Positions 57,119-62,805 of a stretch of DNA of 64,000 nucleotides are shown here, piece by piece. Position 1 is the first letter of the stretch; each line of letters starts with the position of its first letter. The notes below the pieces were generated by a model. The model was not told where the DNA came from. It saw nothing but the letters and a program-made list of their open reading frames with translations, and searched no databases. Both the position numbers and the translations under genes were made by a program. The DNA is from an uncultured delta proteobacterium (GTDB taxonomy: Bacteria > Myxococcota_A > Polyangia > Polyangiales > Polyangiaceae): the NCBI GenBank assembly GCA_963696385.1, contig CAVOKF010000005.1, positions 1,440,001 through 1,504,000 on the forward strand. Reading direction: 5' to 3'.

Positions 57119-57379
57119 CTACGCGACACGCGTGCGCGGCGGGAACGCTCGCCCGTCATTCCCTGACGCATGCCGAAGTTCGACCTGTCGCGACGCGCGC
57201 CAGGCCGCCTCATTGGCTTGCGCGGCAAGCGCACCCGGGTTGGCCTCGAGGATCCGACGCGTCGCTTCGTCAGGATTGAAAAAGTCCGCGCCCGCGGCAA
57301 TGGCCATTTCGCCGAGCACGCTGCTCTTGCCCGCTCCGTTGGTTCCTGCGAGGACGTAGATGCAGGCCCTTTCAGGCAT
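57119..57379 (-). pseudogene. Truncated zeta-toxin-like P-loop kinase/ATPase
   Basis: IYVLAGTNGAGKSS and FFNPDE...ANEAAW, then similarity ends; no FETT-type motif in any frame downstream. Confidence 0.8.
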
Positions 57380-57383
57380 GCTT

Positions 57384-57578
57384 CTATCGTGCGGCTACGC
57401 CCGCCACAGCCGCGGCTCCGAATTCCTCGGGCGTGGCCTCAAACGCCTTCTTCATTCCCGCCCGCGCCCGGGGGGTCTGCATCCGGACGAACATGGTGTC
57501 GAAATCGGCGCTCAACGTGTCGAGCGTGCGCGTGCGTCGAGCAAAAAACGCTCGGAAATCGTCAAACGAGATCAGGAC
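57384..57578 (-). pseudogene. Phd/YefM-type antitoxin, 3' half (split by the IS21 element)
   Basis: VLISFDDF...LDTLSADFDTMFVRMQTP...AFEATPEE; joins in frame to 62066-62240 across the target duplication. Confidence 0.85.
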
Positions 57579-57675
57579 CTTCAGCGGCGCCTTTAGAGTG
57601 ATCCACTTCTGGCGACCGAAGTGATCCACCCGTCGCCGGGGTCGGGGTGGCGGCAGCGGCGGGATCGTGACCCAC
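57579..57675. repeat. Left end of the IS21 element: terminal IR plus three transposase-binding repeats
   Basis: GTGATCCAC at 57598 and 57621 (23-bp period); GTGACCCAC at 57667. Confidence 0.88.
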
Positions 57676-57813
57676 CCCTTGCTATCGGAAAGGGCGCGCG
57701 TCAGGGCCAGTGGCTCACCCCGAGGTGCTCGGCCGGGCGAAGGGGGGAACCGCCAAGACGCCGGTAGGACTCGCGAGCGCTCGGGCTCGCGGCTCAGCGT
57801 GGGAGTCCGGCTA

Positions 57814-58128
57814 TCAGAAGGAGTTGTCGTCCGTGGGATCGTGCGCGGGTGGCATTGCCGCTTCGCGGACGGCGTGGCGGTAGCGCCAGAGCGTTTCGCG
57901 CAAGGTGGCGGCCCTGCGGCAGATCGTGTGGGCGAGGAAGACGACAGGGCCTTGGTCGCGTGGCCTATGGAAGTCGTCGATGAGCGTCTGGTGCTCGGCC
58001 AAGAGCGCGTCGGCAGCGAGGTCGAGCGCGTGTTCGAGCAGAATGATGGAGGCGAGCTCCGGCGCGACGACGAGGTCCGGGACGCGGGGCGGAGGCGGAG
58101 CGGGTGGAACGCGGCGCGGGCGCCTCAC
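57814..58128 (-). CDS. Small accessory protein of the IS21 element (104 aa)
   Basis: GTG start overlaps the istB stop (GTGA); helical APELASIILLEHALDLAADALLAEH. Confidence 0.65.
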   Translation of the reverse strand: MRRPRRVPPAPPPPRVPDLVVAPELASIILLEHALDLAADALLAEHQTLIDDFHRPRDQGPVVFLAHTICRRAATLRETLWRYRHAVREAAMPPAHDPTDDNSF

Positions 58129-58982
58129 GGCGCCGTCGCCCGAGTGGGTGCGACCGGCTTGCCGGCACGCTCGGCAGCGACGTGCTGGCGGTAGCTCGGT
58201 CCGTCGATGTCGATACGAATGGCATGCATGGCGAGCCGATCGAGAATGGCGGCGGCGACGGTCGCGTCTCCCAGGTAGCGTCCCCACTGGCGCAAATCGA
58301 TATTGGAGGTGACCGCGGTCGAGAGCTTGCCGTGCCTGCGATCGACGAGGTTGAACAGAGTATGGGCGGCGGTGGGCTCGTCGTCGCGCTGGCGCCCCAG
58401 GCCGACGTCGTCGATGACGAGCAGGTCGGGTCGTGCCCAGGCCTTCAGGCGTCGGGGGTAGGTGCCGTCGGCGAGGCCGGCGTGCAGGTCGGCGAGCAGG
58501 TCGACGCACCGCGCGTAGCGCAGGGAGATGCCCTGCACGCAGGCGCGCAGGGAGAGAGCCTTGAGGATGTGACTCTTGCCGGTGCCGCTCTTTCCCGTGA
58601 TGACCAGGTCGTCGTGGCGCCTGACGAAGTCGAGGCGGGCGAGCTCCAGCACGAGGCTCTTGTCGATCGAGGGTTGGAAGTCCCAGTCGAAGGCCTCGAG
58701 TGTCTTTCGCTCGACCAGGCCGCTGACCCGGATACGCCGGTCCAGGCGTGCGGCCGACTTGTGATCGACCTCAGCGGCCAGGACGTGCTCGAGCAGGGCG
58801 GTGTGTCCGGGTCGCTCGCGGGTGGCCCACGCGAGCCAGTCGTCGAGCGTGGAGAGCGTATGGGAGAGGCCCAAGTAGCCGAGGTGCCGGCGCAGGCGAT
58901 CGATCACCACGACGGCCTCGTCAGAGGCCGGGCCGGTCACCCGGTCATTGGAGTCTGGTTTATCCGTTTTGGTCTTGGCCAT
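58125..58982 (-). CDS. istB: IstB AAA+ ATPase (transposition helper)
   Basis: KTLEAFDWDFQP, GKSGTGKSH, LLVIDDVG, VTSN and AAILDRL; GGAG RBS. Confidence 0.95.
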   Translation of the reverse strand: MAKTKTDKPDSNDRVTGPASDEAVVVIDRLRRHLGYLGLSHTLSTLDDWLAWATRERPGHTALLEHVLAAEVDHKSAARLDRRIRVSGLVERKTLEAFDWDFQPSIDKSLVLELARLDFVRRHDDLVITGKSGTGKSHILKALSLRACVQGISLRYARCVDLLADLHAGLADGTYPRRLKAWARPDLLVIDDVGLGRQRDDEPTAAHTLFNLVDRRHGKLSTAVTSNIDLRQWGRYLGDATVAAAILDRLAMHAIRIDIDGPSYRQHVAAERAGKPVAPTRATAP

Positions 58983-60535
58983 CGGCGGTCTCCACGGGGC
59001 GGCGGGTGGCGAGCGGCAGAGCGTCGTACTCGGCCAGATCGCGGGGGCGTGTGACGACGGGACCGAGCGCGTCATCGATGCGCTTGGCGGTGTCTTCGGC
59101 GACGTACTCGTCGAGGGTCCGGGGCGGAGCGCGTCGGGCGAGGATGCGCTCGACCGAGGCCGCGTCGAGCGCGCCGAACCGAACGGCGTGCGCGAGGGCG
59201 GCGTCGACGTCGGCGCTGTCGTAGCGGGCACGCAAGAGCAGGATCTGCCGGGCGTGGTGGGTCCAGACACGGGTCACGTGGGCGCCCGAGAGCTGGAGCA
59301 GGAACGCGGCGGCCCCGTCGCCCATCTGCTCGAAGGTGGCGCGCAGCTTGTCGACGTCGATGGGCGACCGGCTCTCTGGGCGAGGATGCAGCCCGAGCGG
59401 ATCGATCTTGTCGCCGCGTCCGCGCGGTCGCAGCTCATAGCGCGCCAGGCAAGCGAGATTCGGCCCGTAGACGAACAGCTCCGTCTGCGTGATGCGCAGC
59501 GGCAGGAAGTCGGTCACATGGTCGTACGGCACGGCGTAGCGGTTACCGAGCCATTCGACGTACCCGTCGATGCTGCAGAGTCGATACGTGACCCGGGCGG
59601 TGTCGTACGGATGCTTGGGCAGCGGCCGCAGATGAGGCGCCTCGTCGCGAAACCGATCGAGGGCGGACAGCCCGTGACGCTTGCGCGGGTCGACGACGCG
59701 AACGAGCCAGTCGGCGAGCTGCGCGGCGAAGTCGTCGCGATCGCGGAAATGAGCGGCCGTTGAGAAACGATCGCTCGTGCTCCCAGAAGCTGCGTTCGAC
59801 GCGCGGCTTGGCGTTGGGTTTTCCTCGCACGGCGGCGGGCTGAATGCCGTAGTGCGCGGCAAAGGCGAGATACCGAGGATTGTAGATGGGCTGGTGGCCT
59901 TCCCACCGGAGCACGACGGGCTTTTGGCTGTCGTACTTGCAGCCCGCGGCGCAGCCGCCGAAGCGCGCGAAGGCGCGCTCGTGGCCGTCCATGAGCGCGA
60001 ACAAGTCCGGCGAGCCGAAGACGTCGAAGGACTTGCGCTTCGAATAGACCAGGACATACGAGAACAGCTGCACAGTCTCGGAGAGGCCGGTCGTGTACGT
60101 GAGCGTGTAGGGCGACCAATCGTTTTCGGCCATCTCACCCGGTCCGAACACCGGAGCTTCGAGGCTCGGCGTCGGCTTGGCCGCTGGCCGCACGCGCCGC
60201 ATCTGCTTCTTGACGGCGGTGTAGCCGCCTTGGAATCCCTCGTCCTTGAGGATCTCCAGCACGCGCTGCGCGGTGATGTCCGGGTAGCGCGCGAGCAACT
60301 CGCTCACGCGACCCTGGTAGGCGTCGATCTTGCGGGAACGCGGCGCGCGCACGGGCGCAGCGGCCAGCGCGGCGTGCCCGTCGTCGCGCTCGCGACCGTG
60401 GGTCCGAAGGATCTTCTTGATCGTGTTCCGACTGACCCCCAGCGCCCGCGTGATGGCGCGCCGGCTCATCCCCTGGGCCGTCAACACGACGACCTGGTGG
60501 ATCAATTCCTCGCGAGAGCGCCAGTGCACCGTCAT
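58960..60535 (-). pseudogene. istA: IstA DDE transposase with a 1-nt frameshift near 59748
   Basis: N-terminal HTH LGVSRNTIKK, FQGGYTAV, PGEMAENDW and KPRVER in one frame; FRDRDDF...DGYVEWLGNRYAVP in another. Confidence 0.9.
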
Positions 60536-61422
60536 GCCCTGCTCGCTCTCTCGGTCACGGCGGTGATCGTTTTCATCAGGCCGCCCAACACGCCATGGAG
60601 GTTGCTGAGATCGGGGCCCACGACGTCGGCGGCGGGTCCCAACGCGGCGAGCGGCATCCCGGCCAAACAGGCCTGAAGTCGCCCCGCGCTCCGTCGAATG
60701 GTCGTCACGTCGAGCGCGATCGTCTCGGCGATGCTCCTTGCCATGCGTGGGCGGCCGCGGCGCGCAGGCCGACCCCCGTCGCGCCAGCGCGCCAGCACCG
60801 CCTCATGCCCCGGCCCCGAGTCGTCCGCGAGCTCGCGCACCAAGAGGGCCGTCTGCCGCACGGTGAGCCCGCGACGGATGACGACCGCGGAGACCGCCGG
60901 CTGGTTGCCACGTGGCAACGCGCCGACGAGGATCGCTGCCCGCGGCGCGAGCAGCCCGAGTCGAACGTCGGCTTGGACCGACGAATCGAGCGCTTCGACC
61001 AGCATCAGGCGGCGACAGACCCAGCTCTTGTGGCAACGAAGCAGCGCAGCGATCGCCCCTTGCGTCACGTGATGCTCTCGATGCAGGGCGCGCACGATCC
61101 ACGCCTCCTCGAGCGCGGTGAGCCCGCGGCCAGCGTGCAGCTCGCGCATCTGCACGGTGGCATCGACGGCGCCAAGGTCGGTGACGACGGCGCGCAGATC
61201 GCGAAGGCCCAGCCCTCGCGCGGCGCGTAGCCGCTTGAAGCCGTCGAAGATCTCGACGGCGCCATCCCGCTCGAACGCGCGCACGGCGGAGAGCTGGCCG
61301 TGCTGCTTGAGCGACGCGCGCATGGCGGCCAGCGCGCAGGCGTCGGCGAGGCGCAGCCGCGACAGGCCCTCGCCGAGATCGGCGACGGCGACGAGGCGCT
61401 CGGCTTGAGCAGCGGCGGTCAC
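60532..61422 (-). CDS. ParB/Spo0J-like protein (ParB/Srx CTPase-like domain plus HTH)
   Basis: SLKQHGQL...IFDGFKRLRAA; LTALEEA...TQGAIAALLRCHKSWVCRRL; stop overlaps istA ATG; GTG start at 61422 inferred. Confidence 0.85.
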   Translation of the reverse strand: MTAAAQAERLVAVADLGEGLSRLRLADACALAAMRASLKQHGQLSAVRAFERDGAVEIFDGFKRLRAARGLGLRDLRAVVTDLGAVDATVQMRELHAGRGLTALEEAWIVRALHREHHVTQGAIAALLRCHKSWVCRRLMLVEALDSSVQADVRLGLLAPRAAILVGALPRGNQPAVSAVVIRRGLTVRQTALLVRELADDSGPGHEAVLARWRDGGRPARRGRPRMARSIAETIALDVTTIRRSAGRLQACLAGMPLAALGPAADVVGPDLSNLHGVLGGLMKTITAVTERASRA

Positions 61423-61445
61423 GGCCGCGAATCCACCACGACTCG

Positions 61446-61916
61446 TTACCCGGCACGAGACCGGCCCGTGACGCTGTCCAGGTCCAGGCCCGATCGGCAG
61501 CCGTTTTCCCCAGCTTCCAGCGCGCAGGGTAGCTCGTGACATGGGCCCACTCTGTCCACTTTGGCGGGCCCAAAAGGGCCGATTTTCCGCAGAATTCGCC
61601 CCAGATCGCGGCGGAGGGTAGCTCGTGACAGGCTCGCGGCCTTGTCCACGATCTGCTGTGCTTTACGCAATAAATCCGCGCTGTTGCCGTCCGAGGGTAG
61701 CTCGTGACATCCGGCCGCCTCGGCGCCGTCCCGGCGCCTTTGCTGGCGTGCGCGCTCGTCGGCCCGCTGCTCGTCCAGGTCGTTGCGCCGCCTCCGGCGC
61801 GCCTGACGGTTGCGGCGCTGGCCGCGGCACCCCTCTCCGCACACAACTTGGTGATCGAGCGCGCTCACGGCAGGTGTGAACCACTTCCGGCACTCGCTGC
61901 ATCGACGCCTGGACAT
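61446..61916 (-). CDS. Cys4 zinc-finger-like basic ORF at the 5' end of the IS21 element
   Basis: CSECRKWF...QVVCGEGC followed by an Arg-rich helix; the C-terminal half overlaps the repeat array and may not be coding. Confidence 0.6.
   Translation of the reverse strand: MSRRRCSECRKWFTPAVSALDHQVVCGEGCRGQRRNRQARRRRRNDLDEQRADERARQQRRRDGAEAAGCHELPSDGNSADLLRKAQQIVDKAASLSRATLRRDLGRILRKIGPFGPAKVDRVGPCHELPCALEAGENGCRSGLDLDSVTGRSRAG
61458..61709 (-). repeat. Array of 16-bp direct repeats TGTCACGAGCTACCCT (three perfect, one degenerate)
   Basis: + strand AGGGTAGCTCGTGACA at 61526, 61615 and 61694; 10/16 copy at 61458. Confidence 0.9.
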
Positions 61917-61968
61917 CGACGCCAGCGTCCGGCGAGACGCCCTCGATCGCGCGTTCCACGGCGCCCCC

Positions 61969-62065
61969 CTGGATCACGATCCCGCCGCCCGCGGCCGCCC
62001 CTTCAGGCCGTGCCGTGGATCACGATCCCGCCGTGCAGTGGATCACGACGAGGGCGCCGCTGAAG
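61969..62065. repeat. Right end of the IS21 element: three transposase-binding repeats plus terminal IR
   Basis: TGGATCACGA at 61970, 62016 and 62039; ends GGCGCCGCTGAAG. Confidence 0.88.
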
Positions 62066-62240
62066 TCAGGACGGCCTTGGGCGTGTTCTGCTTGTTGATG
62101 ACGACGAAGCCGCGGCGCGCGGTCGTGTCGAGCAGGTCTGCGAAGGCATTGCGCGCGTCGGTCGCGGACACCTCCGTGAACTCCACCTGCCTCGAGGAGA
62201 CGTTTCGCGACGTGGCGACCGCCTGGCGCACCTCGGACAT
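62066..62240 (-). pseudogene. Phd/YefM-type antitoxin, 5' half
   Basis: VSATDARNAFADLLD...VVINKQNTPKAVL is a Phd DNA-binding domain pattern; start uncertain. Confidence 0.85.
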
Positions 62241-62451
62241 CTGACGGTACAACGCGATGGCACGAGCGACCGTCTCCTCAAGAAGGGCGGGCTCCGGCGA
62301 GCGTTTCAGTTCGAAGAGCATCCAGTCCTGCTTGCCGCGTCGGCGCGTCCGGCATGCCGCTGCCCCAGCGGGGGGTGGCACAAGTCATTGGGCTACGGTC
62401 CCAGCCCGAACATGCGCTTCAGGCCCTTGCGGCGTCCCGCACGGCTGGCGC

Positions 62452-62805
62452 CTAACCGAACGTCTTCCCGTCGAAGCCCCAGAACGACGCCGGCACGTCC
62501 GCGAACACGACGTATGTGCGGTTCGTCGGCACTCCGAGCGCGTCGTGCACGAGCTTGCAGACGGCCTCGGTCAACCGCTTGGCGCGGTCACCGCCCAGTC
62601 CGCCGATGCTTTTGACCTCGACGAGGCAAGAGGCCTCGGGCGAGCCCGCGAACGTCATTCGGCTGCGCGGTACGAGGCACGTCATCACGTAGCTCTCGGG
62701 CTTCCCGAGGAGGCGTGCGGTTGTCGAAGACAAATCCCGCAAGAGCGCCGTCGCCTTCTCGTCGGCAAGCGGCTCGGCGGACGCGTACACGGTAACGAGC
62801 GGCAT
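62452..62805 (-). CDS. MIF/phenylpyruvate tautomerase family protein
   Basis: Met-Pro start (catalytic Pro1), LLGKPESYVM, VKSIG and WGFDGKTF. Confidence 0.9.
   Translation of the reverse strand: MPLVTVYASAEPLADEKATALLRDLSSTTARLLGKPESYVMTCLVPRSRMTFAGSPEASCLVEVKSIGGLGGDRAKRLTEAVCKLVHDALGVPTNRTYVVFADVPASFWGFDGKTFG

Follow-up and report, generated by a model that had tools for sequence, protein, structure and literature searches.

For transposases that rely on an AAA+ regulator, IS21 serves as a structural model, and ParB-fold proteins that act as cytidine triphosphate (CTP) switches are an active field; the family described here joins the two. IS21-family insertion sequences (IS) produce target duplications of 4-8 bp, and their ends are typically 5′-TG...CA-3′, which is neither a defining nor a universal feature of the family. 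Two reports describe KorB-KorA of plasmid RK2 and BisD of the integrative and conjugative element (ICE) ICEclc as ParB-fold clamps that serve transcription control rather than partition, with KorB acting alongside a small partner (PMC11790492, 10.1101/2024.09.16.613209). The locus analysed here occupies positions 57579-62065 of a 64,000-nt stretch of DNA from an uncultured delta proteobacterium of the Polyangiaceae (contig CAVOKF010000005.1, positions 1,440,001 to 1,504,000; the whole stretch is called the window below), and is one copy of a 4.49-kb IS21-family element whose genes lie on the minus strand. In addition to istA and istB, it carries a zinc-ribbon gene with embedded direct repeats, a ParB-like gene and a small fifth gene. 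These additional genes have been passed on together with the transposase and, with very little room for doubt, mark a distinct and integral IS21 subgroup. The best explanation overall, held at a probability of roughly one half, is that this is a recently active element of an IS21 branch whose ParB-like protein would bind the repeat array and control istAB.

Inheritance of the extra genes with istA and istB

The genes and the array of the window copy, in gene order, are:

61446-61916, minus strand: zinc-ribbon (Cys4) open reading frame (ORF), 156 aa; CxxC...CxxxC and then an Arg-rich stretch, the 3′ half overlapping the array
61457-61709, minus strand: array of four direct repeats, candidate binding-site array
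60532-61422, minus strand: ParB-like gene, 296 aa, GTG start at 61422; ParB/Srx N-domain, ParB-type helix-turn-helix (HTH) and C-terminal helical hairpin
58960-60535, minus strand: istA, DDE transposase, here in two overlapping frames (59543-60535 and 58960-60138)
58125-58982, minus strand: istB, AAA+ helper ATPase
57814-58128, minus strand: ORF5, 104 aa; a helical hairpin followed by an acidic, disordered tail whose last residue is F (TDDNSF in this copy)

The longest ParB-like frame reaches 61542; since homologues of 285-310 aa begin at the position of the GTG at 61422, the true parB is taken to be 60532-61422. With the corrected start, the Cys4 ORF and parB are separated by a 23-nt gap; the junctions that follow overlap, by ATGA between parB and istA, by about 23 nt between istA and istB, and by GTGA between istB and ORF5.

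A pattern scan of GTDB genomes, with one genome per species, found 13 loci encoding ParB-like relatives, and istA follows parB in all 13 wherever the contig reaches. In particular, eight loci, from Polyangiaceae, Polyangiales and Myxococcales bins and one bin labelled Actinomycetota, keep the order Cys4-ParB-IstA-IstB-ORF5, with identities to the window of 50-100% for Cys4, 65-99% for ParB, 79-99% for IstA, 81-99% for IstB (leaving out the decayed locus L019) and 56-100% for ORF5, where the top of each range is set by a single near-identical copy (L013). The other five, from Geobacteraceae, Desulfuromonadaceae and Chlorobiaceae bins, encode ParB-IstA-IstB at 37-40% identity, with a Cys-rich ORF upstream.

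The locus in the bin labelled Actinomycetota (L016; contig JBBRWM010000017.1, 5474 nt) is a five-gene element with 71-86% protein identity. Its close relatives all lie in Polyangia-type bins, and its placement is probably a binning artefact rather than a cross-phylum transfer.

Seeding the search with IstA in 301 genomes of the window's own class returned 29 loci. A ParB-like gene is present at every locus that has both an IstA of at least 39% identity and upstream DNA; among the others, one locus has only a 77-aa remnant (L031), one begins 194 nt before istA (L032), and L040-L042 are fragments. The gene is absent from 12 of the loci, all with an IstA of 35% identity or less. The reverse search, with a ParB profile, placed the family in 27 of the 301 genomes and added 18 loci, 14 of which have istA directly downstream, some with an IstA only 25-31% identical to the window's; the remaining four end no more than 541 nt after ParB. 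Family-level matches occur in only 2 of 301 genomes from the phylum of the Geobacteraceae locus, making the family rare in that sample. Overall, the order of zinc-ribbon ORF, ParB-like gene, istA and istB is kept in every relative with enough sequence, down to 25-40% IstA identity.

The ParB and IstA trees share their groups and topology, with a Spearman correlation of 0.97 between patristic distances (105 pairs from 15 elements). On an IstA tree of 40 rows, the presence (28 rows) or absence (12 rows) of ParB is explained by two changes, compared to a mean of 10.6 after shuffling (0 of 500 shuffles as low), and the 19 closest ParB-bearing elements form a clade (SH-aLRT, an approximate likelihood ratio test, 98). 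Moreover, none of the three extra genes reaches a ratio of nonsynonymous to synonymous rates (dN/dS) of 0.5: 0.23-0.34 for ParB, 0.22-0.35 for ORF5 and 0.35-0.48 for Cys4.

These results bear on the rival account in which the extra genes are passenger cargo, a captured partition or host-benefit module unrelated to transposition. The name given to the ParB-like protein in the source annotations, 'ParB/RepB/Spo0J partition protein', speaks for it. Against it stand the co-phylogeny of ParB and IstA, the overlapping start and stop codons, the istA that follows every ParB-like locus with enough sequence, where the cassette was never seen to head another kind of transposon, and three negative results: the element contains no ParA-like ORF, a tblastn search of 72,556 plasmids returned no match to the ParB-like protein, and PADLOC returned no defence-system match for the three accessory proteins. 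Because of the synteny, the co-phylogeny and the dN/dS of the extra genes, cargo is excluded as an account, and we regard it as effectively refuted.

An earlier note, made from the letters of this DNA alone, had described one co-oriented unit with overlapping parB/istA, istA/istB and istB/ORF junctions, and had read the extra genes as built in rather than captured, in a distinct IS21 subgroup. It proposed a genome search for parB-istA-istB synteny and a comparison of the IstA and ParB trees, and counted a lack of parB in the closest IstA relatives as evidence to the contrary. Regulation of transposition, target selection, target immunity and stabilisation of the excised circle were its candidate roles for the ParB clamp; the internal array and the nature of the ORF5 tail escaped it. 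The co-oriented layout and the overlaps were borne out, and the integral subgroup is supported by synteny and co-phylogeny across deep divergence, the relatives with at least 39% IstA identity and upstream DNA carrying parB. The five-gene architecture did not hold as a family trait, as ORF5 turned up solely within the window's own class, in part of its lineages, and is missing at several loci there. The deep core is instead four genes and the repeat array, and it is an old part of a large IS21 section and a widespread branch.

The ParB-like family is large, with 1294 clusters at E <= 0.001 among 8000 candidates scored, and 735 representatives at 50% identity with E <= 1e-30. Long representatives (457-476 aa) were considered as fusions of the zinc ribbon to ParB, and proved to be N-terminally over-extended or unrelated.

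Ends, copies and recent activity

The ends of the window copy and its target duplication are:

57579-57607 and 62037-62065: arms of the terminal inverted repeat (IR), 29 nt, 83% complementary
57572-57578, strand not applicable: target-site duplication, copy 1, TCAGGAC on the plus strand, direct repeat
62066-62072, strand not applicable: target-site duplication, copy 2, 7-bp TCAGGAC
57579-57675, minus strand: right end in gene sense, with the terminal IR at 57579-57607 and sub-terminal GTGGATCAC-type repeats at about 57597-57607, 57620-57630 and 57657-57675, presumed IstA sites
61967-62065, minus strand: left end in gene sense, with the terminal IR at 62037-62065 and sub-terminal repeats GTGGATCACGATCCCGCCG at 61967-61987, 62013-62033 and 62030-62048

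Each end thus combines the 29-nt IR with three GTGGATCAC-type repeats, and the matched IRs and 7-bp duplication that had been noted from the letters are both confirmed. The ends are conserved in relatives and in a 1003-bp non-coding derivative described below. In all copies and relatives, the termini are CTTCAG...CTGAAG and not 5′-TG...CA-3′.

The intact IstA of copy L002 scores 202.2 bits on NF033546 (NCBIfam cut-off 160), and Pfam gives it an N-terminal HTH and the Mu-transposase C-terminal domain PF22483; IstB matches Pfam PF01695 (E 5e-55) and NCBIfam NF038214 (215.9 bits; cut-off 200). The element is a member of the IS21 family by its IstA, its downstream IstB, its IRs with sub-terminal repeats and its short target duplications. 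Because of this membership, the multi-site ends, the target duplications of 5-8 bp and the copy number, IstA and IstB work as the transposition machinery in the manner of canonical IS21.

Six full-length copies, 97-100% identical, occur in this genome alongside two partial copies and one older relic. Both flanks are readable in four copies, of which three have a target duplication (7, 8 and 8 bp), and relatives in other genomes have duplications of 8 and 5 bp. The element is recently active. The istA frameshift of the window copy is due to a single additional C within a run of Cs around 59745-59746, shared with copy L004, while copies L002, L003 and L005 encode an intact IstA of 524 aa; the istB of the window copy is 6 nt (two residues) shorter than in other copies. 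The sixth full-length copy (L006; C4:1167242-1171704) is set apart from the rest by some 55 small indel columns across all genes; either it has decayed, or the assembly is of low quality along this stretch. The relic (L009/L010; C4:98626-100628) derives from a related but distinct element with 70-78% DNA identity, in which parB is frameshifted and istA truncated.

Further, metagenomes of soil, peat and wetland contain a near-identical element, in 20 sequencing runs that come from 14 studies, with no RNA run listed among them. Four metagenome runs were examined against the window, where the evidence consists of contigs. In all four, the dominant contig lacks the extra C and contains the 6 nt of istB. 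Two of the four (X3 and X4) also have an empty-site contig, in which 57571 is joined to 62066 and 7 letters are shared; its shorter side is only 28 letters, which makes it weak evidence alone.

Two kinds of derivative lack the internal array. The first is a non-coding element of 1003 bp, resembling a miniature inverted-repeat transposable element (MITE), present in the same genome as two copies that are 99.5% identical to each other (L056 418-1420, C5:738917-739919; L057 426-1429, C2:55525-56528). Its ends, which have three sub-terminal repeats apiece, are 77-81% like those of the IS; there is an AT-rich patch inside, and the copies are flanked by target duplications of 7 bp (GCGTCCT) and 8 bp (CCGCGTCC); the internal 17-nt repeats are not present in either copy. 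The second is a deletion derivative (L008; C7:1349133-1352323) that has lost about 1.3 kb (gene-sense ~177-1474), and with it the zinc-ribbon gene, the array and nearly all of parB, and keeps an intact 524-aa istA, istB and ORF5. A joint similar to this deletion, 60587 to 61890, is found in one contig of run X6. Because the array-less derivative has moved and the deletion derivative keeps istA, the module of zinc-ribbon gene, array and parB is not needed in cis for mobilisation.

The repeat array, the ParB-like protein and the proposed control of istAB

The sites of the internal array are:

61693-61709, 61614-61630 and 61525-61541, minus strand: sites 1-3, 17 nt, TGTCACGAGCTACCCT(C/G)
about 61457-61473, minus strand: site 4, degenerate, CGTCACGGGCCGG

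All four are in the 3′ half of the Cys4 ORF, spaced by 79, 89 and 68 nt, with the last about 50 nt before the parB start. The middle copy is in a different reading frame; the repeat is therefore a feature of the DNA (or RNA) and not a protein repeat. Eight relatives keep the positions and spacing of the array while the flanking codons diverge. In seven aligned elements, conservation is 0.916 in the motif columns versus 0.789 in the rest of the ORF, a level that random window triples reached in 9 of 20000 trials, with the caveat that the motif was defined on one of the aligned sequences. The synonymous rate is lowered in the C-terminal half of Cys4, which fits an overlapping constraint on the DNA.

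Other lineages have three to four repeats at the same place, with a lineage-specific sequence in which all copies have changed together (TGTCACGCGCCACC, GTCACGCACCAGCC, TGTCACGCGCCAGG, TGTCACTGGACAGG, GTGCAATCCCAGAT, GTTCAAGAGGTGAT and GTGCAAGAGGCGAT); for example, all three internal repeats of the relic carry the variant TGTCACGCGCCACC. A core of GT(T)CA.GAG is common to the motifs across lineages. In neither of the two lineages compared are the terminal repeats related to the internal motif (GTGGATCAC... in the window copy, GTTTTTGGGTTTTAG-like repeats in L024), and in every lineage 350-610 nt separate the array from the left end. Because the repeat sequence changes in concert between lineages, the array quite probably consists of protein-binding sites.

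The zinc-ribbon ORF that overlaps these sites has homologues upstream of parB in distant lineages, and its conserved residues are C6, C9, C26, C30 and Q23. Its score against Pfam NinG is 24.9 bits, under the cut-off of 25.4 and over the N-terminal part only (profile positions 5-62 of 193). The same part matches PHROG 171 (NinG/Rap; E 7e-5), next to one PHROGs family of unknown function; NCBIfam returned nothing for this ORF, and the ESM Atlas returned only unnamed clusters and one auto-named 'NinG domain' cluster. As the match covers the zinc ribbon and not the full-length NinG domain, an identity as a NinG/Rap junction endonuclease was rejected.

The ParB-like protein matches Pfam HTH_ParB with 32.8 bits (cut-off 22.6) and ParB_N with 17.2 bits, under its cut-off of 26.3. 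Compared to the PDB, the family profile matches Noc (7ng0, E 7e-12) and M. xanthus ParB (1e-11) across the N-terminal and HTH domains. An AlphaFold2 model (pLDDT 89) has a long helical hairpin as its C-terminal third, and Foldseek matches the model to 6sdk and 7bnr (3.9e-10) and to KorB 8qa8 (1.8e-6), so that the closest folds are, in order, CDP- or CTPgS-bound ParB, Noc and KorB. The HTH is the best conserved part, with S133, W134, R137 and R138 invariant. Within it, the recognition-helix segment CHKSWVCRRL is conserved more than any other stretch of the protein, and is identical between lineages that are about 30% identical overall.

Mutational data on Caulobacter ParB from Jalal et al. 2021 allow the nucleotide pocket to be compared. 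Changes of R60, S74, G79, R103, R104, N136 or R139 to Ala or Ser abolish CTP binding, Q58A and E135A bind CTP without hydrolysing it, and E102A binds CTP without hydrolysis, stays locked on DNA and spreads further (PMC8367383). In the ParB-like family, the equivalents of S74, G79 and R104 are invariant and R103 is K in 27 of 29 members; the equivalent of Q58 is not conserved, and those of N136 and R139 are ambiguous or not conserved. At the position of E102, the glutamate in GERR, Phe stands in 29 of 29 members, so that the motif reads G-F-K-R. The label 'CTPase' given to the protein in the earlier note is thus not supported; the protein may bind nucleotide and is unlikely to hydrolyse CTP.

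The ParB HTH is favoured as the reader of the array, because the recognition-helix segment is the most conserved stretch and is identical in lineages that share the core GT(T)CA.GAG, and because sites of ParB-family proteins usually adjoin their own gene; on balance, the ParB-like protein is the likelier array binder. A rival account has the zinc-ribbon protein reading the array while the ParB-like protein uses its ParB/Srx domain as an NTPase or nickase, with DNA or another protein as its target. The zinc-ribbon ORF is indeed co-conserved with the array and physically overlaps it, and some ParB/Srx proteins are nucleases (PMC12839542). On the other hand, the ParB-type HTH, and not another part of the protein, is what the family conserves best, and the closest structures are the DNA clamps ParB, Noc and KorB and not nucleases, making this account an improbable one, and the weakest of the three functional rivals weighed here.

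The inherited unit runs from the left end through the zinc-ribbon gene with its three to four embedded repeats, a gene of the ParB/Noc/KorB class, istA and istB to the right end. Under the preferred reading, in which the ParB-like protein controls istAB, it would bind the internal array via its HTH, probably with its nucleotide pocket kept and hydrolysis lost. With Phe in place of the hydrolysis glutamate it would be unable to hydrolyse CTP, and it would therefore form a stable nucleoprotein complex or a closed clamp. Such a complex would sit between promoters at the left end, or outside the element, and parB-istA-istB, and could determine how much transposase and helper there is, through autoregulation and a block to read-through. 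The zinc-ribbon protein would be a co-factor of the ParB-like protein, as KorA is for KorB. The net role of the module is tentatively, at somewhat less than even confidence, assigned to the control of istAB expression or activity.

Several observations weigh against this reading. The array repeats are direct and not palindromic, unlike parS, the Noc-binding site and the KorB operator, which is unusual for a dimeric ParB HTH, and the candidate binders include the zinc-ribbon protein and IstA as well as the ParB-like protein. The ENxxR motif (P-motif 3) aligns ambiguously and is not conserved across the family, which makes nucleotide binding by the ParB-like protein itself uncertain. A scan of the whole element for sigma-70-like promoters found none, so that the proposed geometry of promoter and roadblock is conjectural; terminator-like sites number two, which is the chance level. 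ORF5 is missing from distant lineages (including the ORF listing of L023). Lastly, the 1003-bp array-less derivative has moved at least twice, and the deletion derivative, which has lost the module, keeps an intact istA. A regulatory or modulatory role accords better with this dispensability in cis than a core catalytic role does, though a regulator gains no positive support from it.

The derivative also bears on a second rival, in which the array and its binders form a transpositional enhancer that helps to pair the ends and to assemble the IstA transpososome, like the internal activation sequence and operator of phage Mu. The Mu-transposase C-terminal domain of IstA and the position of the array, 350-610 nt from the left end in all lineages, agree with such an enhancer, as does the parallel that the Mu operators lie between the repressor gene and the A/B genes. 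It is countered by the two array-less copies with their fresh 7- and 8-bp duplications, and by the canonical IS21 elements sampled (12 loci), which do without the module altogether. An enhancer is accordingly judged unlikely.

MuA/MuB and Tn7 achieve immunity of self or nearby DNA by other means. A third rival ascribes cis-immunity or target choice to the module, where ParB-like clamps slide from the array and keep IstB off the element and its flanks, or steer it. Part of its appeal is the placement of the copies. Seven could be placed (C4: 1.130 and 1.167 Mb; C5: 1.498 and 1.525 Mb; C7: 1.349, 1.376 and 1.429 Mb), each with another copy 23-49 kb away and none closer, an arrangement that random placement matched 2 times in 200000. 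Moreover, IstB is a target-DNA-binding AAA+ partner (PMC11208146), and the invariant Phe at the E102 position recalls the locked, further-spreading clamp of Caulobacter E102A (PMC8367383). The clustering could equally arise from local hopping or an IS-rich region, with an immunity zone as one possible cause among these, and both spreading by the ParB-like protein and its contact with IstB are hypothetical. We place this account on a par with the enhancer, as unlikely.

The fifth gene adds a possible link to the host. Its codon-position GC of 0.77/0.51/0.85 supports coding. ORF5 has 150 homologues at E <= 0.001, all unnamed; for the 120 listed, the last residue is Phe in 117 and the last two are Pro-Phe in 66, and 116 have two or more acidic residues among the seven before a terminal Phe, many of them reading exactly DDDLPF or DDDIPF. 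The host's SSB (single-stranded DNA-binding protein) ends in DDDIPF, which is the conserved tip through which SSB engages its partners (PMC5872125). The model of ORF5 is a two-helix hairpin of roughly 70 residues with a flexible tail; a wide VIA-align search gave no informative structural relative (best Z 8.1, to generic helical hairpins), and Pfam, NCBIfam and PHROGs contain no family for it. An SSB proper was rejected, as the tip motif is present and the oligonucleotide-binding (OB) fold absent, the body being a helical hairpin; the protein may nonetheless work like an SSB tail. A tblastn search did not find ORF5 at seven loci of the window's class (L027, L028, L030, L033, L034, L035 and L055), and it is likewise not found at L037-L039. 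Where it follows istB, in several lineages of that class, its SSB-tip-like tail could bring host SSB-partner proteins, such as replication-restart or gap-repair enzymes, to the transposition product, as an adaptor or a competitor; that ORF5 engages SSB partners has an even chance, judging by the tail.

Phage Mu relies on host restart proteins. A bolder synthesis, which we hold to be unlikely, would make the whole element a case of Mu-like control assembled from borrowed parts: a hydrolysis-dead ParB clamp and a zinc-ribbon co-factor at a parS-like array would mark the element and its surroundings, silence istAB and exclude IstB so that copies land only tens of kb away, and an SSB-mimicking adaptor would hand the product to PriA-type restart or gap repair.

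Insertion site and comparison with known systems

The element interrupts a gene for a Phd/YefM-type antitoxin (window 62043-62381 and 57384-57629, minus strand): a script that deletes the element and one copy of the repeat restores a single open Phd/YefM-type frame, which places the insertion inside that gene. Just downstream of the antitoxin gene, the start of an ORF at 57119-57379 (minus strand) resembles a P-loop kinase or zeta-type protein, with weak AAA_28/AAA_33 matches; the ORF stops after 86 aa, so that the presumed toxin partner looks truncated. A 117-aa ORF at 62452-62805 (minus strand), also adjoining the disrupted antitoxin, looks by eye like a tautomerase/MIF-type protein.

Full-text searches of the literature turned up no IS21 element described as carrying a ParB-like gene; ISfinder and TnCentral lay outside the search, and prior cataloguing there is possible. 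The term 'ParB' is absent from the structural IS21 papers PMC10122671, PMC11208146 and PMC12486865. Two apparent hits were set aside: in PMC12839542, 'iSTAND' had been mistaken for 'ista', and PMC7371123 mentions IS21 only as a count. New here are the conserved internal direct-repeat array and the SSB-tail motif of ORF5, and the family suggests an as yet undescribed mode of control over a well-studied transposition machine.

The family is found in soil, peat and wetland bacteria, and the system is compact, with five genes and four sites in 4.5 kb. It opens the questions of how a ParB-fold protein could control a DDE transposon, what role a naturally hydrolysis-deficient ParB has, and whether SSB partners can be recruited by tail mimicry. 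Further, the current annotation of these genes as chromosome-partition ParB misleads genome annotation.

The element shares with canonical IS21 members (IS21, IS5376) the pair IstA and IstB, the overlap of istA and istB, several sub-terminal repeats and duplications of 5-8 bp. In contrast to them, it is about twice the size (4.49 kb), has two or three extra conserved genes around istAB and contains an internal array of three to four sites. The ParB-like protein, in turn, resembles the ParB/Noc/KorB clamps in its N-terminal ParB/Srx fold and ParB-type HTH, in its best sequence and fold matches and in several kept CTP-binding positions. It departs from them in the Phe that replaces the hydrolysis Glu, in the unconserved ENxxR, in the lack of a ParA partner (the ParABS combination of ParA and palindromic parS is not found here), in its direct non-palindromic candidate sites, in its long C-terminal hairpin and in a gene that always precedes istA. 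Like KorB-KorA and BisD, it is a ParB-fold protein on a mobile element, with a putative role in regulation; whereas KorB and BisD belong to plasmids and ICEs, its host is a DDE insertion sequence, and its small partner would be a zinc-ribbon protein unrelated to KorA.

ORF5 compares with SSB at the C-terminal tip, its homologues ending in DDDLPF, DDDIPF or similar, and differs from SSB in having a helical hairpin and flexible tail where SSB has an OB fold. With phage Mu, the element has in common a DDE transposase, an AAA+ target-binding helper and a multi-site region inside the element near its left end. The regulators of the two are not homologous, and the Mu sites are bound by the repressor and MuA; the analogy would be one of function.

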